Source: Candidatus Altimarinota bacterium
GTDB taxonomy: Bacteria; Patescibacteriota; Gracilibacteria; BD1-5; UBA2023
Length of the DNA: 30,297 bases
Assembly: GCA_041779175.1 (NCBI GenBank)
Contig: JBHBSX010000040.1
Coordinates: 1 to 30,297 of the forward strand
Direction: 5' to 3'
In this document: one piece after another, positions 3,973 to 19,473 of the stretch
Layout: each line of letters begins with the position of its first letter
Position numbering within the stretch: the stretch's first letter is position 1
Made by a program: the position numbers and the translations under genes
The notes under the pieces: model-generated
Database searches by the model: none
What the model saw: the letters and a program-made list of their open reading frames with translations, nothing else
Told to the model about the DNA's origin: nothing

Positions 3973-4578
3973 TTATAATTTCATATATGAAGCTATTTTT
4001 ATAAGAAATGGTGAAATTTTTTCAATAATTTTCTCAGCATATGGCTTGAAGGCAACAGCACCGAGGCTACCGAACAAAAGTCCCGCAATGATATCCCCAG
4101 GATAATGAACGCCTCACATAACACGACAACAAACGGTGATAATTGCAAGCGCTATAGTGAGTCCAATAAGAAAATAATTTTTGCTATAATACAGCATAGC
4201 CACAACAAAAGCCCCAGAAAACAAGGCATGGCCAGAAGGAAAAGAATTGTCGGTTGGATGTGGAATAAGCGGCGTGATATGTTCTACATTTTTGAGTAGA
4301 TCAAATGGGTGCTGACGCCATTGCGGAACCATAAGATTGATAACCGTGTATATAATAAACACAGAAATAATAAGTCCAAAAACCTGAAGCGAAAGGACTT
4401 TATAAGAATTATCTTTTTTGGCGACACCATAAATCCAAGTTCCCACCAGAAATAACATACACCAAATCACTATGGATTCTGCAAGAATTGTCACGAGTAA
4501 TGCGTATTCTGACGGAATAATTGATTGTGCCGCAATAAGAAGCTCTCTATCAAGATCAAGTAGGGGTTGAATATTCAT
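3973..4578 (-). CDS. PAP2 family phosphatase (undecaprenyl-diphosphatase-like), 201 aa
   Basis: WRQHP, NSFPSGHA and RVM[TGA=G]GVHYPGD motifs. Extended past the TGA at 4114 to TAA at 3975-3973. Confidence 0.9.
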
Positions 4579-4601
4579 ATTTTTTTGAAAAAATCCTTGT
4601 T

Positions 4602-4629
4602 AGTATATGGATTTTTTAATTTTTTACAA
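4602..4629 (-). promoter_or_regulatory. Putative promoter of the PAP2 gene
   Basis: TTGTAA-16-TATACT on the minus strand. Confidence 0.5.
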
Positions 4630-4696
4630 AAATTTTTTAGAGAATACATTGACAATGTGTTTTTTTGGTTTTTATATAATTTTTTATCTAAAAAAG

Positions 4697-4728
4697 AAAA
4701 TCCCACTGATTCCTTAGTTCAGTGGGGG
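4697..4728 (-). terminator. Intrinsic terminator of the orphan gene
   Basis: Minus strand reads CCCACTGA-ACTAAGGAA-TCAGTGGG then ATTTTCTTTTTT, about 17 nt after the stop. Confidence 0.7.
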
Positions 4729-4745
4729 TTGTAGTTTTCTAACTA

Positions 4746-5183
4746 TTAAGAAATTTCTTCCAAATTCCTAATAGTTTTGTTCAAAATATTGTAGTAACAT
4801 GTAAGTTCCAATAGTTGTGTTGCAATTTCTTTCAATAAGTCTTCCTGATTCTTTTTATTATGCTTAAATTTATTATATAAGCTAATTAATAATGGTAATG
4901 CAATAAAACAATTATTAATTGTATTGCTTAAATTTTCTAAGCACAATAAGCTCTTGTCTATGGTTTCAATATAAACAATTTGTTGAATTTCATCCAAGCC
5001 TGACACCTGAATTTGTTCAAGATATCTAATTTCATCATCAAAATTAATTGTATCAATAATTCTACTTTCTGAGAAATTAATGAATGGTAAAGATTTGAAA
5101 TTTTGAACAACACTTTTCAATGAAGGATTTACAATCCTCATCTTTGTAATGAGAATTGAAACTTTCTGTTCTAATTCAGACAT
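4746..5183 (-). CDS. Hypothetical protein (orphan, predicted helical), 145 aa
   Basis: ATG to TAA, with GAAAGGA SD 6 nt upstream, a consensus promoter and its own terminator. No recognisable motif. Confidence 0.7.
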   Translation of the reverse strand: MSELEQKVSILITKMRIVNPSLKSVVQNFKSLPFINFSESRIIDTINFDDEIRYLEQIQVSGLDEIQQIVYIETIDKSLLCLENLSNTINNCFIALPLLISLYNKFKHNKKNQEDLLKEIATQLLELTCYYNILNKTIRNLEEIS

Positions 5184-5229
5184 TTTTTGTCCTTTCTTTT
5201 TTGAAAAAGTTAATAAAAACTACAATATT

Positions 5230-5258
5230 ATTATACGCTAATAAATTAAATTTGTCAA
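5230..5258 (-). promoter_or_regulatory. Consensus sigma70 promoter of the orphan gene
   Basis: TTGACA (5258-5253), 17-bp spacer, TATAAT (5235-5230) on the minus strand. Confidence 0.7.
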
Positions 5259-5284
5259 ATAATTTTCTCAAAAAATAATCCCCA

Positions 5285-7873
5285 TTATTGAGGATTATTC
5301 TGATTATTATTTGGTTTCTTTTTCTTTTTATTTTTTGAAAAATTTTTGGAAGGCTGATTATTGTTATTATTTGGATTTTTATTTTCTGGTGGTTTGAGTG
5401 TTGGATTTGGATTTTGTGTTGGTGCTGGTGGTTGTGGTACTGGTACTGTATTGCTTCAGTCAAGAACCACGCCACGCGCCGCCAATCTTTCTTCCATTTT
5501 TTTGCGATTTTCTTCGGCTTTTTCTGCTTTTTTCTTTTCTACGGCTTCCATTTGTTTTTGACGATATTTTTGTTCGTCTTCACGGACTTTTGCCGCATAT
5601 TCAAAAATTTTTTTCTCAACAAAATCTCGTTTTTTGGTATATTTTTCTCGAGAAACCTTAAGAAGAACATCACGAGATTGTTGAGCGGGAACATCAATTC
5701 GCGACATAAGTGGCGCGAGTGTTGTCGCCGAAAAAACGGGCGAAGGCATTCCGTCTATGAGCAATTTGGTATAGATATCGTATTTTCTAAGATTTGTCAA
5801 GTCATGTGGCGAAATCACATCTTCTCAGCCAAACATTTCATAGAGTACGCTTGCGTCCTGTTGTCCCACCTGAAAGGAAATAATCGTCCCCACATTTCCA
5901 AATACCGCGCCCTGAACCGTGTCGGCCATCTGAGAGATATATTGATTCGCCATAGTGAGCGAAAGTTTATACTTTCGGGCTTCCGAGAGAATAGTGGCAA
6001 ATGAGTCAGTTGCAAAATTCTGGAATTCGTCGACATACAAGCCAAAATCTCGGCGATCTTTTTCGGGAATATCAGCACGAGTCATGGCTTCAATCTGGAA
6101 TTTGGTAACCATCATGGCACCTAGCAATGCGGAAGAATCTTCCCCAATTCGTCATTTTGAAAGGTTGACAATAAAGATTTTTCCATTGTCCATAATCCAA
6201 CGCATAGAAAATGGATTTTTGGGCTGACCAAGAATATTGCGAAGAATCGGCGAAGAAAGGAATTGTCCTACTTTGTTGAGAATAGGATTCACCGCTTCAG
6301 AAACCATATTTGGCGACATTTTGTCAAATTCTTCATTCCAGAATTGAACAAGCAGCGGATCATCGAGTTTTGCAACAATTTTTTTTCGATATCATTCATT
6401 GGTGAGAATGAGCGGAATAGACACGAGAGTGGCTTCAGGAACGCGAAGAAGCGTGAGAATAGTATTACGAAGAATATATTCCAGACGCGGTCCCCAAGAA
6501 TCCGCAAACATTTTTTTGAAAATCGAAACCAGTCCAGAACCTACAATAGGACGAAGTTCTGGCGATGGCGACTCGAGCATATTGAAAGCAATGGGGAATT
6601 CTGTATCCGCGGGATCAAAAAGCACAATATCATTGGTGCGAGATTTTGGAATAGAACGCAAAATCGTCTCAGCAAGATCGCCATGCGGATCAATGAGCCC
6701 CACGCCTCGTCCCGCAAGAATATCGGAATAAATCATATTTTCAAGTAGCGTCGATTTTCCCATACCCGTTTTTCCGATAATATAAGTATGACGAGCACGA
6801 TCTACCGGCTGAATCCCGAAATTTTCTTTTTTTCCACGAAAATTAGAAACCCCAATTGGTGTGTTCGGTTCTTCGGCATGTGGCAAATTGTGTGGCGGTT
6901 CGAATCGGCGAGTTGTCACCCAATTCACTCAAGGCGTCTTGACATAAATGGTCGGCATGTGCACGAGTCCAGCCAGTTCTGTTACTGAGAGAATGCTTTT
7001 GAATGGGGAATATGGAGTCAGCGTTTGTTCATAAGATTTTCGCAAAATTTTTTTGGAAGGGAGAAACTTGGCTCCATGTGGTGATGAGAAAATTGTGAGA
7101 CTGGATGAGAGTTCTTTGTTGCGATGAGATTTGGTGGACGCAAGCAGAATCCTTGTGGAATAACCATAAGTAGCGAATTTTTCTGAAGTTTCTTCGTCTT
7201 TTTTTTCGGAATTATTTTCGGTTTCTGTTGGTTTTGTGATAAAAATTTGGAGAAAAAATTTTAAAAAAATCCAAGGCCAAGTTATCATCCAAATCCACCA
7301 ATTATGCGATAATTGAAAAATTTTTCTTCTGTCGGAAATATTCGAAGCAATGATTTTTTGAGATTTTTCATCACGAAATCTGTCATCTTCCAGCGGCGAA
7401 AAATCCACACGAAAAAATGAAATTTCGTCTTTTCCAGAGTGTGAAAGCACGGAAGTTATAGGCGAAAGCGGATCAATAGTTTCCTTTTCTGTTCGGTCTT
7501 TGAGATTGACATACAGCTTGATAATTTTGTTGCTGATTTTGTCAAGATGTGCTTCTTGAGTAAAAAATTCTTGTGTTGGCAAAAATGGAAGTTCTGATTC
7601 GGTAATTTCTATGTTATTGTAGTGAGCATAGAGTTGCGATTCAAGAAATTCTTTATATTTTTTTGGGGTTTCAAAGAAAAAACGAATGCGTCCAGCTGCA
7701 TGCACGACTAAAAATCGAAAAGTTGGTCGTTTTCGAAAATTGGGAATCAAAGATTTTTTTTCAAAATTGAGAACATCATGGAGAGTCGAAAGCATTTCTT
7801 TTGCAATAAAAACTCATTTTTCATTGTGGCGATCGACAGCAATTTCGAGAATTTGTGTTTCTTCTTTTTTCAT
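5285..7873 (-). CDS. VirD4/TraD-like type IV coupling-protein family ATPase, 862 aa
   Basis: Single frame with TGA=Gly joins five ORF-track fragments. Walker A GKTGMGKST, LIDPHGDLA, WGPRLEYILRN, Walker B YVDEFQNF and SEARKY. P/N/K-rich low-complexity C-tail. Confidence 0.88.
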
Positions 7874-7988
7874 AACAGGGTTAGTATATCATATTTTATT
7901 CTAAATTTCAATTGCTTTTTTGAAAAAAATTTTTATAATTTTTTGGCTTTAAAAATTAAAATTTGAAGAGAAATATTTTTTAAAAATT

Positions 7989-8621
7989 ATGCAAAAAATT
8001 TTTGTAAATGCATCAGAAATGCACATCTCATCTGATTGTTATCTTATTGACAATGGAGAAATAGCAACAGCACATATTACCAGTGAAAAAAATATAAAAA
8101 TTCATTATACGCATATTCCCCAAGAAAATTGTGAAAATATTCGATATTTTTCTTTGGCGGAAAGTGTGGATTTTTGTGGTAATTCTGTGATTTCTGTGAA
8201 TGGAAAGTATATATTTACTACGGAGGCAATAGGAGACGGAGTTCATTCTGCTTTGAATATTCTGGGAATTGCTTCGCACGAGGCTCATATTTCGGCAGAA
8301 GGTATAGCAAAAGTGGACAAGCCATATAAGCAGCTCAATATGAGAGTAGATCAAACCAATATTCTCATCGGTGATAAGTCTATTGTTCGTGGAGTTCCTC
8401 GTCTTGAGATTGCTACTGATGATATTGAGGGTGGACATTCTTGTAAGATACATAGACTTTGAGGAGATTCATTATTTTATCTTGAATCCCATGGAATGAA
8501 TGCAAAGGATGCAGAAATTTTCTTGCTTAATAGTGAGATTTTACGACATTTGAATACACTTCCAGAGGAAGATATGGAGATTTCTTGTAGCAGTATTCAT
8601 AAAAATATTTTAAAAAAATAA
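7989..8621 (+). CDS. SufB/SufD-family Fe-S assembly protein (C-terminal domain only), 210 aa
   Basis: QTNILI...GVPRLEIATDDIEGGHS...LFYLESHG resembles the SufD C-terminus. Extended through the TGA at 8460. Confidence 0.75.
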
Positions 8622-8642
8622 TCCCGAAATTTGGGATTATTT
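8616..8642. terminator. Bidirectional terminator overlapping both stop codons
   Basis: AAATAATCCC-GAAATTT-GGGATTATTT. Contains the TAA of the SufD-like gene (8619-8621) and of fieF (8639-8637). Confidence 0.8.
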
Positions 8643-9518
8643 TTTGTCTTCATATTCATCATTATATGGATCAAGATGGAACATAATTGACCATTTGCTT
8701 TCGGTATCAAGTTTTTTGATAGAATCTTCAATTTGATGAGAAACTCTGTGTGCGTCAATAAGTGAAATTTTTTCATTAAAAACCAAATGCGCTTCCACGA
8801 ATTTAATTCCACCTGATTCTCGAGTACGAAAATTGTGATAATCTGTAAGTTTTTTGTTATTATCAAGAATATCAAGAATTTTTTCTACTTGCATTTCATC
8901 CAATGAAACATCAAGAAGGAGCAAAAATCATTTTTTAATAATATCAAAAGCTGAAAAGGCAATATAAATTGCAATTCCCAAACCAATAATTGCATCAATA
9001 AAATACCAATTTGTCCAAGAAATAATAACAAGTCCAGTAAGAATAGCAAGATTGGAGAGGAGATCAGTTTTATAGTGAAGTGAATCTGAAGCAATAACAA
9101 TATTTCTTGTTTTTTTGGCTACAGAATCAAGATAAGTTACCAACGCACCAGTAATGATAACAGAAAAAATCATCACAATCACACCAATTCCTGTTTCTTC
9201 TACTGGTTTATTATAAATAAGTTTAGAAACAGATTCATAAGCAATAAATACGCCAGCCAAAGTTATAATAATTCATTCCAAGAATGCAGCCAATGCTTCA
9301 ATCTTTCCACGACCATAATTGAATTGATCATCAGGATCTTTTCAGGCATTTTTGACAGCAACAAAGTTGAAAATGGAAATTCCCATATCAAGAAGTGAGT
9401 CAATGGCACTTGAAAGAATAGCAATGGATCATGAAAAAATTCAAACAGTAAGTTTTACTCCTGCGAGAATTATGGCGGTTGCTGTGGCTATTATGGTAGC
9501 CTTTTGTTCAATTTTCAT
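8637..9518 (-). CDS. fieF: Cation diffusion facilitator (FieF/YiiP-like), 293 aa
   Basis: MKIEQKATII..., TM2 DSLLD, NYGRGKIE, TM5 DSLHYKTD and C-terminal HLDP. TGA=Gly at several positions. Confidence 0.88.
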
Positions 9519-9601
9519 AAAAATTTTTTAAAAATTTTAATAAAAAATCCCAAACAAAACGGACTAAGAAACTCATTTTGAATGGGGTTTGGAAATCACT
9601 G

Positions 9602-9679
9602 TGGAGGCGCCAATCGGATTTGAACCGATGACTTTAGAGCTTTGCAGGCCCTTGCAATTGACCACTCTGCCATGGCGCC
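9602..9679 (-). tRNA. tRNA-Cys(GCA) with encoded CCA
   Basis: Acceptor stem GGCGCCA/TGGCGCC, anticodon loop CT-GCA-AA, T arm ATCGG-TTCAAAT-CCGAT, discriminator U, then CCA. Confidence 0.95.
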
Positions 9680-9718
9680 AAGTGATTTTATTATATAGAA
9701 AATTTTAAAAATGCAAAT

Positions 9719-10264
9719 TTATTTACAGGTAAAAGTGCGAAAAAGGTCAATGATGGATTTTATTTCTGTTCATAGGGCTACGCTTGCATGCATAAGATAT
9801 ACACGCGTTCCACAAAATTTAGCTGTTTGTACGAACTTGAGTTTCTGGGTTTGAGCATTATATTTGGCATTGAATACAAAATACTTTGACGCATCGCTGT
9901 CTCCAAATAAAATATCACTTTTTTCTAATTGTTGATATTCAAGATATTTTCCTTGAGTTTTGAGATTATTTTGTTCGCTGTATTGAACAGAAGTGCCAAT
10001 ATAACCAGGAACATCCTCGATAATAATAATATTATTAGAGAAGTTATATTTTTTTTCAGGAGAAATTGAGGTGAGTACAACATTTCCATTTGCTGGAGAA
10101 GGTAAATCAGTAATGTTGCCACTTGAAGTCCAGTGTTCTGGTACTTGTATGGTAAAGCCAGAACCAGAAAATTCTTTAGTAGTGATTCCAGAGACTTGAG
10201 AGCTGGAGTTTCCACAAGATACGAGAGGGATTAAAAAGACAAAAAGAAGAAAAAATTTTTTCAT
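9719..10264 (-). CDS. Hypothetical lipoprotein (possibly PsbP/DcrB-like fold), 181 aa
   Basis: MKKFFLLFVFLIPLVSC lipobox. The GFTIQVPEHW segment resembles PsbP-like domains. Extended through the TGA at 9770 to TAA at 9721-9719. Confidence 0.75.
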
Positions 10265-10274
10265 AAAAAATAAA

Positions 10275-10631
10275 TTATAAAATTCCAAGATGTACTATAA
10301 GTGCAAATACACTAAAAATAATTGAAAACACTGCTGCTATAATGAGAAAAATCTTTTTTTCAGGAAAATGAGTTCCAACAAAAAACTCCACCAGAGAATA
10401 ACCAAAAAAAGCAGTAGATATGACAAGAAGTGAATACATATGATATGTAAGCTTCGCAAGTGAGTCGAGACTGAGAAAAGGGAGATAAAAACCTCAAACA
10501 GTAAAAAGATAGCTCAAAAAATATAAAGTTACTGTAAAAACAAAAATTTGTTTTGCGATTACAAAGCGGATTTTACTGTATTCAGAGAGGTTTTTTGTAA
10601 GTCTTTCTTGAATTTCCTTGATTTTTGACAT
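10275..10631 (-). CDS. Small hypothetical membrane protein (about 3 TM), 118 aa; absent from the ORF track
   Basis: MSKIKEIQERLTKNLSEYSKIRFVIAKQIFVFTVTLYFLSYLFTV[G]GFY...VHLGIL, then TAA 10 nt before the lipoprotein ATG. Confidence 0.7.
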
Positions 10632-10669
10632 AAATTTTATAAAATCATTTGTGTTTATTATATTGAAAA

Positions 10670-10951
10670 ATGACTCTTACACAAGAACAAATTACAAGAC
10701 TTGGAAAATTAACTGCTCTCCAAGCGAATTCTTACATAGAAATTGATAGTGTTTTACAGTCACTTGACTCTATTGCACAAGCAAATATTGAGGATGTATC
10801 TCATATTTCTCGCTCTGGAAATTCATCACTCACACCACGTGAAGATATAATCATTGAAAATGAATCTCTTCCAGATGAACTTTTAGCATGTTCACCACAA
10901 AAAAAGGCAGCTCATCAAATTGTGCTTGCTGGTATTATGCAGGGAGAATAA
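10670..10951 (+). CDS. gatC: Asp/Glu-tRNA amidotransferase subunit C
   Basis: MTLTQEQITRLGKL start, PREDII, and a C-terminus and size typical of GatC. Confidence 0.7.
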   Translation: MTLTQEQITRLGKLTALQANSYIEIDSVLQSLDSIAQANIEDVSHISRSGNSSLTPREDIIIENESLPDELLACSPQKKAAHQIVLAGIMQGE

Positions 10952-10952
10952 A

Positions 10953-12014
10953 ATGTTGGAAAGTCTTATTTTGACGAGTTTTCGAGGAATGCAGAATCAG
11001 AATTTTTCTTTTTGACTAAAAAATCATATTATAGGAAAAAATGGTTCTGGCAAAACACATATTCTCGATGCTATACATCTTTTAACTTGAGCAAAAAATT
11101 TATACGGAAATACAAAGTTGGATGCTGGTGACCGTGTTGAGATTTTTTTTGAAAAAAATTTTCAAAAAATTTCATATACTCTTGCTTCTGATGAGAAACG
11201 AGAGTATTTTTTGATTCAATGAAAAAAAATAACGAAACCAAAATATTTGGAAGAATTACCTTTTCGAACAGTATATGTCTCTCCATTTGATATGAATATT
11301 TTGTATTTTTCACCAGCAATGCGACGAGACTATTTGGATGATATTCTTGCTCGTTCATATGCACAATTTGGAAAAATAAAACGAGACTTTGAAAGTGTTA
11401 TGAAACAAAGAAATGCACTTTTAAAAAAAATTCGTGAAGAAAATGTGTGAGAAGATTTTTTGGATTTTTGGGATAAAAAATTTGCGGAAATTGCTGTTAT
11501 TTATGGTATGTATAGGGAAAAATATATTCAATATATTTTTCAAAAAATTTCAGATTTTCCAGAATTTTTTTGACAATATCATATTACTATCAAGTATACT
11601 GGAGATTGGATATATCAGGAAAATCCAGAACTTTTTATTCAAAAATATTTAAAAGAAAATAGAAAACGAGATATTTTTTCTGGTCATACACATATAGGTC
11701 CACATAGGGATGATTTTGAAATTTTAATGAAAAATTCTCAAGAAGAATTACAATCTGTACAATTTTTTTTATCAAGATGAGAGATGAAAATGATTTTATT
11801 ATGATTGAAAGTAATAGAATGTGATTTTATAGCAAAACAAACGGAAAAACATATGGTTTTATTGGTTGATGATATATTTGCAGAACTTGACGAAAATAAT
11901 ATTCTGATTTTCTTAAATATTATTATACAACATCAAATCATTTTGACAAGTCAAAAACCGCTTCCAAACGCGATAAATCCTGAAAAATATACTTGCATAA
12001 ATTTAAGTATTTAG
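10953..12014 (+). CDS. recF: DNA replication/repair protein RecF, 353 aa
   Basis: GKNGSGKT, SPAMRRDYLD, QRNALLK, GPHRDD, LSRGE and LLVDDIFAELD. Single frame with TGA=Gly, TAG stop. Confidence 0.93.
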
Positions 12015-12048
12015 TATTATATTATAAGTTTTTTCTCTAATATTTTTT

Positions 12049-13707
12049 ATGTTCAAAAAAATTCTTTCTTTTTTGCTGGCAACCTCGCTGGTTGTTCCAG
12101 CTGTTGGATTTGCTCCAATGGCGTCAGCTGCATCAGGAGGTGCTGTTAAATTTCAGATTACCGCCCCAGCAACAGCAGTTGTAGATGAGGCTTTTGATAT
12201 TACGGTGACTGCTATTGATGCTAATGGTAATAAGGCCACAGGTTATACAAATTCCATTATCTTTAATACGGATAATATTGGTGATACATATCCAATGCCA
12301 GGTCGCGCTATTCCTTTTACGGCTGAAGATGCGGGTGAAAAAAAATTTTCTAAAGGAGTATCCTTTAAGAGAACTGGTAAAAATAAGATCTATGTTAATG
12401 ATTTGAGCGATGATATTGCCGGAGAGGTAACTATTATGGTTGAAGCTGCTGGATCTTCCACGGTTGCATCAGGTTCTGAAATTACTATTCTTACGCCTAT
12501 TGCTGATTCCAAGATCACAACGGATATGGTACTAGTAAGCGGAACAACCCGCAAAAATAGCAAGGTTTCTCTTGAACTAAATGGCCAAGGGGTTGGAACG
12601 GTAGTCTCTGATGCTGAATGATTGTTCACAAAAGAAATTCAGGGAATTTCCCAGGAAAATAATATATTGAAGGCTTCATTGCTTGATGCAACGGATGCTG
12701 TGATTTCTACCTCTTCAGAGATAAAATTTTCTAAAACAACAGAAACAAACTCAATTTATGGAGTATCTATTGTACCAGGAACAAATGTGGAAGCTTCTAC
12801 AGAAATGACAATAACTATTGATGCTGTTAAAGGGTTGTCTGAAGTTACTGCCATGCTTGATGGTTCACTTCTCAAGGCTACAGAATCTTCTGAAGGAAAA
12901 TATACTATCAAAACAAATGCTCCACAGAAAGAAGGGGAATATCCAATTGATATTACTGCAAAGACCATTACAGGTCAATCGATAACAAAAGAAAAAATGG
13001 TAACACTAACAGTAGTTCCAAAAAAGGTAGAGGCAGCTATTGCTACAGGATCTACTGATGTTCCTGTGAAAGCTGAATTTAAAGATATAAAAACAGAAAC
13101 AAAAGATGCTCGTGTAACATTTACTTTTTCTGTTGAAAATCCTCCAGCTGAGCTTGATGCATTTGAAATTTCTCATGCATCGGGATCTATCACGACGTAT
13201 TCTGGTTCTAAAATTCTTAAAGATGGAAAATATTCTTGGTATATAGACAATCTTTCTCCAGGGCAATATACATTTAAGATCCAAGGAAAAAATGCTAGTG
13301 GCGCATTAATGGAAAATCTTATTTCTGAACCACTTATTGCCACTATTGGAACGCCTACTTGTACTATTTCAAATGTGTGAACAATTTCCCTTAATACAGA
13401 CTCAAGCAAGACTGTACTTTCTTGGCCTATTGTTGAAGGAGCGACAGGATATAATATATACAAGGTTGACACTAATGGAAAGTATAGCCTGGTAACAAAA
13501 ACAAAAGATCCTTCTTATACAGTGTATTTGTCTCAAGGTGCAGTGACATATGGGGATTTTGCAGTAAAAGCAACATGTGGAGATAATACAGAATCTGCTG
13601 ATTATTCCAAGATTTCTAAGGTACAAACAGGTCCTGGTGCCATTGCATTTATTGTAATTATTTCTGCAATTATTGCTATAGTTTTCCTTCGTCGTAAAAC
13701 AGTGTAA
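12049..13707 (+). CDS. Secreted Ig-like multi-domain surface protein with C-terminal sorting-like signal, 552 aa
   Basis: Signal peptide ending ASA, beta-rich T/S/V domains, C-terminal KVQTGP + hydrophobic helix + RRK. Two TGAs read through. Confidence 0.8.
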
Positions 13708-13740
13708 AAATACGTTTTTTAAGAAAAAACATATTTTCGT

Positions 13741-13768
13741 TTGACAATTTTAATATTTTCTATAAAAT
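13741..13768 (+). promoter_or_regulatory. Putative promoter of the rpsT-infC-rpmI-rplT operon
   Basis: TTGACA-16-TAAAAT. Confidence 0.6.
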
Positions 13769-13816
13769 ACGCCCACTATTGTGCGTAATAGCCTATTATT
13801 TATTTGATTTTTCTTT

Positions 13817-14080
13817 ATGCCTACTACAAAAGCAGCGACAAAAGCCTTGAAGGTGAGTCAAAAAAAGCGTTCTCGTAACCGCCGTTATCTAGAACTTTTT
13901 AAAGAAGCAACAAAAAAATTCCAAGCAGCAGTTGCTGAAGGAAATGCTGCTTCTATTGCAGAAAATCTTTCTTTGGTGTATTCTCGTATTGATACACTTG
14001 AAAAGAAAAATATTATCCACAAGAATAATGCAGCACGTAAAAAATCTGCTTTTGCAAAATCACTAAAAAACAACGGATAA
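13817..14080 (+). CDS. rpsT: 30S ribosomal protein S20
   Basis: MPTTKAATKALKVSQKKRSRNR...IDTLEKKNIIHKNNAARKKS. Confidence 0.95.
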   Translation: MPTTKAATKALKVSQKKRSRNRRYLELFKEATKKFQAAVAEGNAASIAENLSLVYSRIDTLEKKNIIHKNNAARKKSAFAKSLKNNG

Positions 14081-14083
14081 TAT

Positions 14084-14632
14084 ATGAGAAGAACGAAAAG
14101 TTTTCCACAAAATAGAAAAGATGATAAGCGAATAAATGGAGATATTACTGCTTCAAATATCGCTGTAATTTCTGATGGGGGTGAATTTTTATGAAAAATG
14201 TCTCTTGATGATGCATTGGCTCTTGCAGAAAAACAAGAACTTGATTTAGTTGAAATGGGTGGCATGCAAGATGGTTTGCCACTTTGTAAAATCATGGACT
14301 ATGGGAAGTATGTTTTTAAGCAACAAAAACAACAAGCTCAAAATAAGAGTCAAGCCAAGAAAACAGAAGTAAAATCCATGAAGCTTACATATAAAATGTG
14401 AGATCATGATTTGGAAGTTCGTCGTAAACAAGCAGAAAAATGGGCAAAAGACGGTAATCCTATGAAGGTATTTCTTCAGCTTCGAGGTCGAGAGAATCAA
14501 TATGAGGATCTTGCTCTGGAAAAAATTGAAGAATTTATCATAAGTGTTGAATCTTTTTATAAAAAAGACGAGAAATCAAAACTTCAAAAACAAGGAAATA
14601 CTTTCAATGTTATTCTTCATCCTAAAAAATAA
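14084..14632 (+). CDS. infC: Translation initiation factor IF-3, 182 aa
   Basis: [22 protein letters not shown], [G]DHDLEVR and LRGRE. Two TGA=Gly. Confidence 0.95.
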
Positions 14633-14651
14633 TTTTTTTACCTTATATATT

Positions 14652-14849
14652 ATGAAACTTAAAACTCACTCAGGAGCAAAAAAACGTGTTCGTGTTACAG
14701 GGACTGGGAAAATTATGGTAGATAAGACTGCAAAGCGCCACCTTCTTTCTCAGAAATCTACAAAAGCGAAAGGTCGCGATAAATACGGAAAAGTTATTTC
14801 TTCTGCAAACATGAAAGCAGCAAAATCTTCTCTTCCATATGCTGCATAA
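14652..14849 (+). CDS. rpmI: 50S ribosomal protein L35
   Basis: [20 protein letters not shown]...RHLL. Confidence 0.95.
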
Positions 14850-14876
14850 TTTTACCTTTAATAAACTCAATTTACT

Positions 14877-15224
14877 ATGACTCGTGTAAAACGTGGTGTA
14901 ATGACACACAAACGACATAAAAATGTTCTTGCACTTGCAAAAGGATATCGTCGTATGAACGGGAATGTATACTCTCGTGCTAAGAATGCAATTATGAAAG
15001 CTGGTCAACATGCATACGTTGGTCGTCGTCTAAAAAAACGTCAATTCCGTCGTCTTTGGACAGTCCGTCTCAATAATGCAGTTCGCCCACTTGGAACAAA
15101 CTATTCAACATTTATTCACAATCTTTATGTGAATAAAATAAAATTGAATCGTAAGGTTCTTTCAAATCTTGCAATTTCAAACCCTCAAGTGTTTGAAGCA
15201 ATTGTAAAGAAAGTTACAAAATAA
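14877..15224 (+). CDS. rplT: 50S ribosomal protein L20
   Basis: MTRVKRG, AKGYR, GRRLKKRQFRRLW and LNRKVLSNLA. Confidence 0.97.
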   Translation: MTRVKRGVMTHKRHKNVLALAKGYRRMNGNVYSRAKNAIMKAGQHAYVGRRLKKRQFRRLWTVRLNNAVRPLGTNYSTFIHNLYVNKIKLNRKVLSNLAISNPQVFEAIVKKVTK

Positions 15225-15225
15225 T

Positions 15226-15245
15226 AATTCCCCGAAAGGGGAATT
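15226..15245 (+). terminator. Intrinsic terminator after rplT
   Basis: AATTCCCC-GAAA-GGGGAATT followed by TTATT. Confidence 0.75.
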
Positions 15246-15275
15246 TTATTCATTGAAATTATTTATATTTAGAAT

Positions 15276-15536
15276 ATGGAAAAAATCATAAAAGTGTGTC
15301 ATGGAAAAACATGTTCTGAAAAATTTTCAAAATATATTCTTGCTCGTCTTGAAGCAGATAAAGATTTTTATGGATATGAAAATATTTCTATTGAAAAGGG
15401 TATTTGTATGGGAAAATGTGATTTTTGACCAAATGTTAATATTGATTGAGAGATTTTTTCCGCACAAAATCCTGTAAAATCTTCTGAAATTCTTAAAAAG
15501 AAGGTTGAAGAATGGAAAAAACAATATAATTCTTAA
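15276..15536 (+). CDS. Thioredoxin-like [2Fe-2S] ferredoxin domain protein, 86 aa; absent from the ORF track
   Basis: VCHGKTC...GICMGKCDF[G]PNV, matching a Cx4C...Cx3C pattern. Confidence 0.8.
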
Positions 15537-15545
15537 TTATTTTTT

Positions 15546-16418
15546 ATGCCAAAGGTTTGATATGTAGCTATTTTGTGACGACCAAATGCTGGAAAATCAA
15601 CATTTATAAATGCTCTTATTTGAGAAAAAGTTTCAGCTATTTCTCCTCGTCCACAGACCACACAACGTTCCGTTACCGCGATTTATACTGATACAGAAAA
15701 GGATTTGCAAATTATTTTTCTTGATACTCCAGGTATTCATGAGGTTGATAAAAATTCGCTCAAAACCACACCAAATATCAATGAGAGAATCAATGCTGAG
15801 GCATTTGCTTCACTTCGTGAGGCTGATGTGGTACTTCGTCTCATTGATCCTACTCGTCCGCAATGAACAGAGGACGAGCGTATTGACGAAGTTCTTGATT
15901 TTGTCAACAAACCAGTAATTCGTGTAGAAACCAAGCAAGATCTTACCAAATCATATCCATGAAAAAATATCGATTTTAAAATTGATTCTACTTCATTGTC
16001 TGGTTTTTCTGATTTGATACAGAGAATTGCTGAATTGCTTCCGGAATGACCGTATTTGTATGATGAGGATTATTATACGGATCAGCCTATGGATTTTCGT
16101 ATTTCTGAGATTATTCGCGAGCAAATGTTTGCAGAACTATGAGACGAAATTCCTTATGCTTCATATGTAGAGATTGCTAATATTACCAATAATCCTGATT
16201 TATTGTCGGTGCAGGCATATATTCACACAGAAACAGAATCTCAGAAAAAAATTCTTATTGGAAAAGCGGGTTCAAAAATTGGTGAAATTGGAACAAAGTC
16301 GCGACTTCTTTTGGAGCAAATTTTTTGAAAAAAAATATTTCTTGGTTTGCGAGTAAAGGTTGATAAAAATTGGCGAAAAAATAATAAAACTCTTGAAAGA
16401 TTATTTCCAAAACGATAA
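15546..16418 (+). CDS. era: GTPase Era, 290 aa; absent from the ORF track
   Basis: V[G]YVAIL[G]RPNAGKST, PQTT, DTPG, TKQD, EIPY and KH motif ILIGKAG. Eight TGA=Gly. Confidence 0.96.
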
Positions 16419-16424
16419 AATACC

Positions 16425-17081
16425 ATGGTTGATTATAATCCATTTGCAAAAACATTTTCACAGAGTAGAAAAAATATGAAGTGGCCAGAATTGGATACAA
16501 TTCTTCAGGATATTCAAGAAAATAATTTTAAAAAAATTGTCGATATTGGATGTGGAAATGGTCGATTTGTCGAACAATATATGTCGAAGTTTGGCGAACT
16601 TCCGTCGAACTATACTGGTGTCGATGCATCAGAGATTCTTGTTCAGGAAGCGAAAAAAACATTTCCAAATCAAGAATTTATTGTGTCGACAATGCAAGAT
16701 TTTGTGTCAAAGTTGGCGAAGAAAATTGTCGATAATGTCGAAGATAAGTTTGACGCTATTGTGTTTTTGGCTTCATTTCATCACTTGGAAACAGAACAAG
16801 AAAGAATTCAAGTACTTTCTGATTGTAAAAAATTTTTGAAAAAAAATTGAAAAATATACCTCACAAATTGGAACTTACTTCCACAAGAAAAATATAAAAA
16901 TTCCCACACTGGCAATGGAGATTTTCAGATAAAAATTTGAGAATTTTATAGATACTATCATTGATTTAGTCTTGAAGAACTGGAATATATTTTTCATAAA
17001 AGTGGTTTTTATATTGAAAAAAATGAAATTTTTTCATGAGAAAGAAATATTTTTTCTATACTCACACATGAAATTTTGTAA
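16425..17081 (+). CDS. Class I SAM methyltransferase, Trm9/ALKBH8-like, 218 aa
   Basis: YNPFAKTFSQSR...WP, VDIGCGNGR, LASFHHL and C-terminal RYYH[G]F. Confidence 0.8.
16537..16743 (+). repeat. Intragenic array of short TG[T/G]CGA motifs
   Basis: GTCGA at 16539, 16561, 16569, 16583, 16604, 16620, 16685, 16728 and 16737, plus TTGGCGAA at 16591 and 16713. Confidence 0.85.
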
Positions 17082-17223
17082 AAATTTTTTGAAAATTTTT
17101 ACAAAATCAAAAAAATATATATAATCCTCATATGAATTGTCAGAACTTGTGTCATTTTCTTCTAAAAATTCCCCCACCTGTCTGGGGTTTTTAGAATTTT
17201 ATTTTATTTTTTAAAAAATTTTT

Positions 17224-17994
17224 ATGTGAAGATGACCAGTTGTGGCGGCAAAAAAAGATAAAAATGCCAAAGCAAAAGCAAAAGTGAATACTATTCACGC
17301 AAAACTTATTTCTATTGCAGCCGAAAAAGGGGCTGATCCTGATCTTAATACTTCCCTTACTGATGCTATTCATACTGCTAAAAAAGCTGGTGTAACGGCT
17401 GATGTTATTGAGCGTGCTATTGCTCGTGGTGCTGGACTTGATAAGGATGCAAAAAAAGTGGAAGAAATTTTCTATGAAGGATATGCTCCGGGTGGAATTG
17501 CCATTATTGTTCGTGCGCTTACCGACAACAGAAATCGTACCGCTCCAAATATTCGTCATATTTTTTCTGCTTTTGGTGGAAATCTTGGAGAAACAGGATC
17601 AGTTTCCAATTTTATGTTTGATTTTGTTGGAAGAATTGTTATTGCAAAGCCAGCTGATATGGAGGCTTTTGAAGAAAAAATTTTCGAAACTTCAGCAGAA
17701 GATTATGAGGTGGGAGATGAAAATATTGTGATTTGGATGGCAACAACAGCATTGATTGAAACGAAAAAAATTCTTGAATCCGCATCGTATGAAATTCTTG
17801 AATCGTCATTTTTTTACAGAGCCAAGAATTATACTCCAGTAACAGAATTTGATACCGCATTGAAACTATATAAAATGTTTGATGCTTTTAATGAGGATGA
17901 AGATGTAGAATTTGTATGCAATAATGCTGATATTGACGATGCACTTTGGGAAGAAGTAGAAAAATTCGTTAATGAAAAAAAATTCCGCACATAA
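17224..17994 (+). CDS. yebC: YebC/PmpR family protein, 256 aa
   Basis: M[G]R[G]P start, YEGYAPGG, TDNRNRT, GNLGETGSV and DEDV. Confidence 0.92.
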
Positions 17995-18044
17995 ATTTGA
18001 ATTTTTCATTTTTTCTTGTATAATATCCGAAAATAATTTTTATT

Positions 18045-18467
18045 ATGTCAGAAAATAATCAACAAAACGGTCAAAATCCGCAAACAATTCGACCAAAAAC
18101 TTTGAACACAGTAATTCAACAACGTATGGGGGTTCATCCTCTTACGAGTTTTGATGAGGCTAAATTCTTGGATTTATTGGAACACTCACTTTCACTTTCT
18201 ACTTTTGAAAAAAAGCGTGTGATTGATAGTATTCCTCAACTTTCACAATTTCAAATTGATGAATTGATGAAGGTTTTTGAAGATGAACGCGTAGAATTCC
18301 GTAAATTGGTTGCTACTGAAGGAGAGATTATTAAAGGTCTTGTAGTGAAAGCTCAAAATGAGTGGGAACAACTCAAGGATATTTATATTGAAGAAAAGAA
18401 AGCTGCTGAACAGGCACGACTCGACGCTGAAAAGGCTGATGAAATCAAAAAATCACTCGGATTATAA
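18045..18467 (+). CDS. Hypothetical acidic helical protein, 140 aa
   Basis: Uninterrupted ORF with codon usage like the housekeeping genes and its own promoter-like TTGAAT-16-TATAAT (17997-18024). Confidence 0.8.
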   Translation: MSENNQQNGQNPQTIRPKTLNTVIQQRMGVHPLTSFDEAKFLDLLEHSLSLSTFEKKRVIDSIPQLSQFQIDELMKVFEDERVEFRKLVATEGEIIKGLVVKAQNEWEQLKDIYIEEKKAAEQARLDAEKADEIKKSLGL

Positions 18468-18480
18468 TCTGAATGTTACT

Positions 18481-19473
18481 ATGTTTGTTGAAGTTATACC
18501 TCACTGAACATCGTTTTCTATAGAAGCCCTCACATATTTTGTGGGGACTTCTTTTCGTTCTCGGATACAAATTTGACAACTTGTGGAGATTCCGTATGGT
18601 AAAAAAACAATTTTTGGCATTGTTGCTCGTATCTTTTCTGAAGAAAATTTTTGAAAAAATTTTGATAATTCTGAAGAAACAGAGAATGTTGATAATTTTT
18701 CTCGAGTAATTCCATGAAAATTTGCCAGATTTTCCCAATGAGAAAATAATGAGAATAATGAAGAAAATTTTTTAAAAAATTTTCCTGAAATCAAAGAAAT
18801 ATCAAATATTGTTTCTGAAAAGCCAATTTTATCAGAATATCAAGTGACTATGATTTTGAGAATTTCTCTTAAATATATTCTCACTTTGCATAAGGCTTTG
18901 GGGATTTTTTTGTCAGAACCGATTTTGCGTCGTTTACAAAAATATTCTTTTCCTTTAGGAGAAAATCCAAAAATTTTCAAAAATTTTTTAGAAAAAAATG
19001 AAAAACAATATGATTTTTATATTTCAAAAAATGAGATTATTTCTCCAGAAAAAATTTTGCCATTTTTCAAAAAATCTTTGATAATTATATTGCCTGATGA
19101 TATTGTTTTGTCAAGATTTGAAAAATTTTTTGAAAAAAATTCTTGTGAATGGAATGATGCAATCGCTTTTTATCCTAATGATATGACTGATACCAAACGG
19201 GCGCAGGCATTTATTGATATTTACAATAAAAAAAGTGAAATTATTATTTGAACACGGAGACTTCTTCAGTATAATGTCTCGGCTTATGATGAAATTTGGT
19301 ATGTGGAGGATAGTTTTTCAAGTGAATACTATCACTATCCTGTGCGTATTGAGTATTTGGATTTTTTGGCACATATTGTTGATTCTTGAGAATTTTCTGT
19401 AAAGATTTTTTCAAGTATTCCAAAGCTTAAAACCTTATCACAATTTCATTTTTTTAAACTTCACCATTTTTAA
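18481..19473 (+). CDS. Truncated, degenerate PriA-like protein, 330 aa
   Basis: LTY...I[G]QLVEIPYGKK..FGIV (3'-DNA-binding domain), IILPD, III[G]TR, YVEDS and SSIP align with the N-terminal half of PriA. No Walker A, Zn knuckle or second helicase lobe. Confidence 0.7.
18639..18783 (+). repeat. 25-bp direct repeat pair 120 bp apart inside the PriA-like gene
   Basis: TGAAGAAAATTTTT(G/T)AAAAAATTTT at 18639 and 18759. Confidence 0.6.

Follow-up and report, generated by a model that had tools for sequence, protein, structure and literature searches.

Helically phased TGKCGAW arrays overlying genes of one chromosomal domain in Gracilibacteria

A dense array of the pentamer GTCGA was identified in a contig of 30,297 nucleotides from Candidatus Altimarinota bacterium (hereafter the window), where it is written into the first half of a 218-codon gene for a class I S-adenosylmethionine (SAM)-dependent methyltransferase. 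This array is one of a set built from the motif TGKCGAW (K, G or T; W, A or T), the copies of which lie on the same strand at distances of multiples of approximately 10.5 bp, overlie unrelated genes on either strand, and are gathered, in a close relative with a better assembly, in one chromosomal domain of about 33 kb. Very probably the arrays are a protein-binding signal of some kind, and we see an even chance that they form an origin-proximal domain of binding sites, on which a protein binding head-to-tail would mark or organise the origin region in a clade without ParABS.

The window corresponds to contig C40 of genome G000, a 1.02-Mb assembly of 159 contigs with 32% GC. For comparison, a congener with 94% completeness in six contigs (genome G001; 865 kb, including C1 of 683 kb and C2 of 181 kb) and relatives from further genera (genomes G015, G072 and G044) were employed.

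The array in the methyltransferase gene

The host gene contains four in-frame TGA codons and its reading frame is open only under genetic code 25, indicating that TGA is read as glycine. The translated protein matched the Pfam families Methyltransf_11, Methyltransf_25, Methyltransf_12 and Methyltransf_23 (E ~1e-13), and orthologues are present in 24 of 25 relatives. The GC content of the array segment is 34%, slightly above that of the genome.

A total of nine GTCGA copies are located on the plus strand of the array, at 16539, 16561, 16569, 16583, 16604, 16620, 16685, 16728 and 16737. This is exactly the number given for about 205 bp in the initial annotation of this DNA, which had described a cryptic, strand-polar motif array inside a coding sequence, and the eight plus-strand copies that it had listed for the remaining 30 kb were recovered as the same eight. 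The polarity was also reproduced, the single minus-strand GTCGA, at 16686, being that of the palindrome GTCGAC. The variants are present as TGGCGAA at 16592 and 16714 and as TGTCAA at 16705, and both of the recurring sub-blocks were located in the array. Codon alignment bore out the claim that the copies fall in all three codon phases, and the codons used for them are indeed uncommon, GTC accounting for 9% of Val codons and TCG for 8% of Ser codons. The earlier observation is confirmed, and it was understated.

When the near variants are included, the array consists of 12 same-strand sites in two blocks (Table 1). The seven sites of block A, with spacings of 22, 8, 14, 10, 11 and 16 bp, overlie the codons of SAM-binding motif I (IVDIGCGNGR). 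Block B, with five sites, corresponds to a 10-codon insertion specific to the genus, plus its flanks; the version of this insertion in the congeners is a duplicated TGGCGAAGTT-TGGCGAA pair. In a Rayleigh scan, the phase coherence of the 12 sites was R = 0.68 at a period of 10.4 bp (p ~0.004, uncorrected for the scan). Among the arrays examined in these genomes, that in the methyltransferase gene is the densest.

Table 1. Positions of the host gene, the array and its sites in the window. For single sites the position of the first nucleotide is given.
Feature	Position	Strand	Basis
Host gene, class I SAM-dependent methyltransferase, 218 aa	16425-17081	+	code 25 translation, Pfam
Whole array, 12 sites TGKCGAW or near variant	16537-16743	+	motif count, codon tests, Rayleigh scan
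Block A, seven same-strand sites	16538-16625	+	motif positions
Block A site TGTCGAT	16538	+	
Block A site GGTCGAT	16560	+	
Block A site TGTCGAA	16568	+	
Block A site TGTCGAA	16582	+	
Block A site TGGCGAA	16592	+	
Block A site CGTCGAA	16603	+	
Block A site TGTCGAT	16619	+	
Block B, five same-strand sites	16684-16742	+	motif positions
Block B site TGTCGAC	16684	+	
Block B site TGTCAAA	16705	+	
Block B site TGGCGAA	16714	+	
Block B site TGTCGAT	16727	+	
Block B site TGTCGAA	16736	+	

At the genomic rate of GTCGA, 0.285 per kb per strand, a 205-bp segment should contain only about 0.06 copies. When the protein was kept fixed and codons were drawn from genome usage, the mean was 0.62 GTCGA and the maximum 6 in 20,000 draws; when the synonymous codons of the gene itself were permuted, the mean was 2.7 and the maximum 7, and the count of nine was never reached. 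A reproduction of the density by codon shuffling, which the initial annotation had named as a refutation of its claim, was thus not obtained in either simulation. The amino-acid sequence admits GTCGA at 10 places, nine of which are used, and the tenth carries GTCAA, one base off. The cluster is non-random and far from chance.

Orthologues of the methyltransferase gene hold just 0-3 GTCGA, and the origins of the sites were inferred from a codon alignment with nine of them. Some sites were created by silent changes (Gly TGA to GGT, Val GTT to GTC) and others by amino-acid replacement. Within SAM motif I, ILD was changed to IVD at a Leu that is kept by all nine orthologues; further site-creating replacements are LAK to MSK, PKK to PSN, and Ile to Val. 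The use of all three codon phases, the occurrence on either strand with respect to the host genes (see below) and the creation of sites partly through amino-acid changes altogether uphold the earlier claim of a signal at the level of DNA, not of a protein repeat.

Phased arrays in the genome and in the family

No other non-homopolymer 5-mer of meaningful count clusters with itself as strongly in this genome as GTCGA does. Within 205 bp, 209 pairs on the same strand were counted against 34 expected, and the same-strand distances showed peaks at 10-11, 21-22, 30-32 and 43-45 bp. T was found at position -1 in 94% of the phased copies versus 41% of the unphased copies, and A or T at position +5, so that the unit is TGTCGAW. 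At phased distances from TGTCGA, 106 copies of TGTCGA (0.8 expected), 25 of TGGCGA (1.6 expected), seven of CGTCGA (0.4 expected) and six of TGTCAA (1.9 expected) were counted, versus eight, one, two and none, respectively, at out-of-phase control distances. The enrichment of TGGCGA shows that the initial annotation generalised the motif correctly to TGKCGA. The real motif is TGKCGAW, with same-strand copies at multiples of about 10.5 bp, and by this spacing the sites face one side of the helix.

A total of 15 arrays with at least three phased sites were identified in G000, on contigs C7, C12, C40, C64 and C99, and none in the reversed sequence of the genome used as control. The array-bearing contigs C12, C7 and C64, plus C21 and parts of C40, correspond to one stretch of contig C2 of the congener G001. 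In G001, 13 of the 14 arrays are located inside C2:64-97 kb, a domain of about 33 kb out of 865 kb; no array was found on the 683-kb contig C1, and the reversed-sequence control again gave none. The density of TGTCGA in G001 is 2.49 per kb within the domain versus 0.33 elsewhere, and TGKCGAW pairs outside the domain are almost nil (two in 683 kb).

All the G001 arrays are intragenic. Their hosts are unrelated housekeeping genes, for UvrA, GlyA, ComM, ComEC, a TrxB-like reductase, leucyl aminopeptidase (PepA), VirD4-like and VirB4/TraG-like ATPases, a polysaccharide pyruvyl transferase and the methyltransferase. The orientation of the array is the same as that of the host gene in eight cases and opposite in six. 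Array orientation thus does not follow the coding strand, which disfavours a role in RNA or translation, and with it the RNA-level element that had been offered as one of the first hypotheses.

Within the array domain, the genes for the VirD4-like coupling protein (987 aa), a SpoIIE-type PP2C phosphatase and the VirB4/TraG-like ATPase form a conserved block (G001:C2:74387-80410), which is syntenic in G015, G072 and G044, is found on contig C12 of G000, and neighbours ComM, UvrA and ComEC. The window as a whole is a mosaic of rearranged blocks with respect to G001: window positions 3973-15247 correspond to C2:38.1-27.5 kb in inverted orientation, 15275-17074 to C2:69.1-70.9 kb, and 17082-18673 to C2:18.5-20.0 kb. 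The break in synteny with C2 comes right after the methyltransferase gene, from 17082 onward.

The distribution within the family was analysed with the pair TGTCGAW-N3-4-TGTCGAW, which was found in 32 of 61 family genomes and 13 of 24 genera, the reversed pattern giving four hits in total. The hits of each genome gather within 10-35 kb of one contig. A three-site pattern was found in none of 300 other Patescibacteria genomes, 16 of which belong to the same class. Clear repeated arrays are carried by the genera nearest to this one (g1, g3, g5, g6, g8, g9, g13, g21 and g30), and just one or two pair hits by the more distant g11, g15, g16 and g20. The array-free genera include g2, g10, g12, g14, g17 and g18. 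In eight genes of the domain, no other CpG-containing 6-mer comes close to TGTCGA in frequency, in any of the genomes. The feature maintained in the clade is the density and phasing within the domain, and individual arrays turn over. On the point whether orthologues keep the motif or the cluster moves between genes, which the initial annotation had raised, the cluster moves and the domain stays.

A candidate replication origin and the search for a binding protein

The cumulative GC skew of G001 has its maximum at C1 ~350-400 kb and its minimum at C2 ~100-110 kb, with consistent arm lengths, and that of G015 has its minimum at C4 40-45 kb. Inside the array domain of G001, a 327-bp intergenic region with 17% GC (C2:92011-92337), flanked by the divergently oriented genes of an S41 peptidase and of a 449-aa (membrane) protein, is a candidate for oriC. 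It carries the only TTTTTCACA box cluster in the 865 kb, made up of three or four boxes, TTTTTCACA / TGTGAAAAA(C), in agreement with the relaxed DnaA consensus TTWTNCACA. The syntenic region of G015 (C4:39.5-39.9 kb) contains the same boxes, again the sole cluster of this type in the sequence examined, and an AT-rich tract, and is located at the skew minimum of its contig. In G072 and G044, the synteny is kept, but the box-like repeats are scattered and weaker. Perfect DnaA boxes (TTATCCACA) are scattered, and clusters with one mismatch are weak. In G000, the corresponding place is the gap separating contigs C21 and C64. A small conserved acidic open reading frame (ORF) is seemingly present upstream of the 449-aa gene.

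In four genera, the peak of arrays starts a few kb from the candidate oriC and extends over PepA-UvrA-TrxB-ComM-VirD4-VirB4; the methyltransferase gene itself and the candidate origin are about 21 kb apart in both G001 and G015. The scan for clusters relative to the skew, as outlined in the initial annotation, thus placed the arrays in a single domain next to both the candidate oriC and the minimum of the GC skew. Sites concentrated near the putative origin, as in ParABS systems, were found in G001 and G015, and the placement in G072 and G044 is syntenic. Type IV secretion genes of bacteria of the candidate phyla radiation (CPR) tend to be near origins (preprint, 10.1101/2025.01.22.634366), and the origin assignment made here is compatible with this tendency, with which the VirD4-VirB4 block inside the array domain also agrees.

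Candidate binding proteins were searched for by domain. All matches to Spo0A_C (PF08769) stayed below the cut-off in G000, G001, G003, G015 and G072, the best E-value being 0.08, and GerE, LytTR, CtsR and the helix-turn-helix domain of WhiA were not found in the genomes searched. ParB_N was detected in eight of the 61 family genomes and is absent from G000, G002 and G003; ParA (AAA_31) was detected in none of five genomes, as against 14 of 14 control genomes; and no parS (TGTTTCACGTGAAACA-like) within two mismatches was found in G000 or in the 865 kb of G001. StbA_N (ParM) matched nothing, the control genomes included. No pair of motor and adaptor genes of the actin-like or tubulin-like type was found among the annotated domain genes, TubZ being outside this search.

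Three OmpR-type (Trans_reg_C) regulators are encoded by G001, namely P0002, P0003 and P0004. P0003 was rejected as the binder for being missing from the array-bearing genera g3 and g13, and P0004 for being missing from the array-bearing g5 and g21. P0002 occurs in every one of the 61 family genomes, array-free genera included, with a bimodal identity that mirrors phylogeny, and being universal it does not discriminate. No TGKCGAW pair was found upstream of the regulator genes.

In DnaA domain IV, the array-bearing genera have RNHTAVMY and the array-free genera RNHSAVLY; this difference (Thr/Ser, Met/Leu) was set aside as a clue, being too conservative and confounded with phylogeny. The recognition segment of the family DnaA (e.g. 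G001:C1:270741-272162) reads GRNH(T/S)AV(M/L)Y versus the widespread GRDHTTV(L/I)H, and the residues that we take to be the contact residues D433 and H439 (E. coli numbering, aligned by eye) are Asn and Tyr throughout the family. Literature searches returned no description of such arrays.

Interpretation of the arrays

The array is a double-stranded-DNA signal, and we propose that its TGKCGAW sites on one helical face serve as landing pads for a sequence-specific and cooperative protein binding head-to-tail, in a mode like that of OmpR/PhoB-type, Spo0A-type or plasmid ParR-type proteins. The arrays may jointly mark or organise the origin region as a centromere-like or origin-condensing domain; as a second option, they may control initiation. 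Selection would act on the density of sites in the domain and not on fixed positions, and arrays should then come and go in any gene able to tolerate them; the methyltransferase array would be a young and unusually dense one. Among the hypotheses of the initial annotation, the binding-site array for a chromosome-organising protein is the one that phasing, domain confinement and origin proximity fit best, while the binder that it supposed was not brought to light. Only tentatively do we entertain the more specific idea of a new type of centromere or origin-organising domain, in which dozens of phased repeats, spread over housekeeping genes around oriC, would be bound by a protein outside the known partition families in a clade of reduced, recoded Gracilibacteria after loss of ParABS, under selection sufficient to alter conserved residues in catalytic motifs of the host proteins.

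Several observations weigh against a binding-site domain at the origin. The searches described above yielded neither a binding protein nor a partition motor of known type, and the uncharacterised ORFs of the domain resemble membrane proteins and not DNA binders. The dnaA gene is several hundred kb distant on a different contig, in every case away from the candidate origin, and therefore we infer the origin from GC skew, box clusters and synteny only. In G000, the fragmented assembly and the synteny break leave no distance from the methyltransferase array to the origin obtainable. Site positions are conserved no better than ordinary 6-mers (rank 381 of 1667, for eight domain genes in four genera); a claim of conservation for individual sites was accordingly dropped, and the argument for selection relies on site density, helical phasing and the codon tests. 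About half of the genera of the family are without arrays and yet also without ParB, and hence the arrays are not a simple replacement of parS.

Known centromeres resemble the proposed domain in part. In parS/ParB systems, multiple and mostly intragenic sites are located within tens of kb of the origin, and density is conserved although the host genes are unrelated; the difference is that parS is a single 16-bp palindrome and the present sites are phased direct repeats. The plasmid systems parC/ParR (R1, pSK41) and tubC/TubR have short direct repeats with a 10-12-bp period, which are bound cooperatively on one face of the DNA to build the segregation complex. A plasmid centromere is, however, a single intergenic locus beside its own par operon, in contrast to about 15 intragenic arrays on the chromosome with no linked par genes.

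The rival that survives best, though we consider it unlikely, is that the arrays are sites for a response regulator of the OmpR/PhoB type or a Spo0A-like one, controlling replication or a local regulon. Once activated, this regulator would cover the DNA flanking the origin and hold back initiation, as do Spo0A~P, MtrA, CtrA and HP1021 at their origins. Direct repeats of a hexamer with a 10-11-bp period are the signature of OmpR/PhoB proteins, and the operators of this group (pho box, WalR, PhoP) share with the arrays a TGT-initial hexamer or heptamer, placed head-to-tail every 10-11 bp with an A/T-rich, less conserved spacer; such operators, however, comprise two to four half-sites and belong to the promoters of dispersed regulons, whereas the present sites are intragenic and in one domain. 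The motif TGKCGAW equals the Spo0A box TGNCGAA, including the tolerance at the third position, and Spo0A boxes are likewise arranged head-to-tail at about one helical turn. The 0A box consensus is TGTCGAA, such boxes are also present in oriC of B. subtilis, and Spo0A~P limits initiation at these origin boxes (PMC5295017); MtrA sites listed in PMC13189361 also include TGTCGAA-type heptamers. A supply of regulators is given by the three OmpR-type proteins of G001, P0002 being present throughout the family. Against this, the Spo0A_C, GerE and LytTR domains were not found in the genomes searched, the organism is a non-sporulating Gracilibacterium, and the Spo0A boxes form pairs in promoters and oriC, in contrast to intragenic arrays of up to 12 sites over about 33 kb. 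Moreover, P0003 and P0004 are missing from some array-bearing genera and P0002 is equally present in array-free ones, the near absence of pairs outside the domain and their absence upstream of regulator genes are unlike a regulon, and the candidate oriC itself holds no site.

Somewhat less probable still is a DnaA reservoir, in which DnaA oligomers would be guided by low-affinity sites of one orientation, spaced at about 11 bp, and the domain near the origin would store or titrate DnaA, like datA or the DnaA-box clusters of B. subtilis. The arrays flank the candidate oriC, and same-orientation phasing at about 11 bp is that of the low-affinity arrays in E. coli oriC, a spacing suiting filament-like loading; domain IV of the family DnaA also differs from the usual RDHTTV(L/I)H. 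A further resemblance is that of the Spo0A box TGTCGAA to the complement of the DnaA box, TGTGNATAA (PMC5295017). However, TGTCGAW does not match TTWTNCACA at core positions invariant in E. coli, whereas the candidate oriC has its own TTTTTCACA-type boxes that do fit the relaxed consensus. The Thr/Ser difference between array-bearing and array-free genera is, as noted, conservative and confounded with phylogeny, and, with roughly 100 additional sites, a genome of about 1 Mb would carry a heavy titration load.

A cluster of TCGA methylation sites, also suggested in the initial annotation, appears improbable. The core of the motif includes the palindrome TCGA, the genomes searched encode N6-adenine methyltransferase domains of the Eco57I/TaqI class, and a precedent is provided by SeqA, which needs GATC pairs on the same face, E. 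coli oriC being dense in GATC; a SeqA-like reader of hemimethylated same-face sites would then sequester the origin region once it has been replicated. However, the flanks of the palindrome are asymmetric, with the preference for T at -1 and W at +5 described above, the accepted variants TGGCGA and TGTCAA are without TCGA, and the observed/expected ratio of TCGA (0.71-0.77) is ordinary among palindromes. The methyltransferase domains are present also in an array-free genome, and their architectures differ.

That the arrays have no function at the DNA level, being a rare-codon or pausing patch, a horizontally acquired segment or chance, is very improbable: although GTC, TCG, CGA, GCG and CCG are all minor codons and the segment is slightly richer in GC, the sites occur in every codon phase and, in other genes, on the non-coding strand, are helically phased with a conserved flank outside the 5-mer selected for counting, keep to a single domain of the chromosome in several genera, exceed every codon simulation, and are carried by a gene whose orthologues and native TGA glycine codons point to vertical inheritance.

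Origin-proximal binding sites embedded in genes are already known, as parS, ram sites and DnaA-box clusters. New here are the architecture of phased direct repeats, the use of a Spo0A-box sequence where no Spo0A was found, and how strongly the sites are imposed on coding sequence. We know of no account of how the origin is organised and segregated in CPR bacteria without ParABS. For this question, the arrays offer a testable cis-element with a 7-bp motif, a set geometry and a domain of about 33 kb, and the array-bearing clade and its array-free sister genera offer a contrast by which the binder may be found. The methyltransferase gene is a natural case of a DNA-level code overriding protein constraint, with nine of 10 opportunities used and a residue of the SAM motif replaced. 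In addition, a candidate oriC is gained for a lineage where dnaA does not mark the origin.

Two further elements were noted in these genomes. A 22-bp tandem repeat (unit ~GTCATCCTGAGCGAAGTCGAAG) is located at the ends of two G000 contigs, C15:1-130 and C82:1-115, in opposite orientations; it contains GTCGA but with A at -1, and was left out of the array family as a different element. The repeat holds a hairpin-forming CATCCT...AGGATG, and the two contig ends probably represent one unassembled locus. A palindrome with or near the parS core is located 1-2 kb from dnaA, at G000:C43:10307 and G001:C1:269549. Its core is intact in G000 (TTTCACGTGAAA) and has one mismatch in G001 (TTTCTCGTGAAA), and no ParB gene was found; this palindrome could be a relic parS or a site of the CRP/FNR type.

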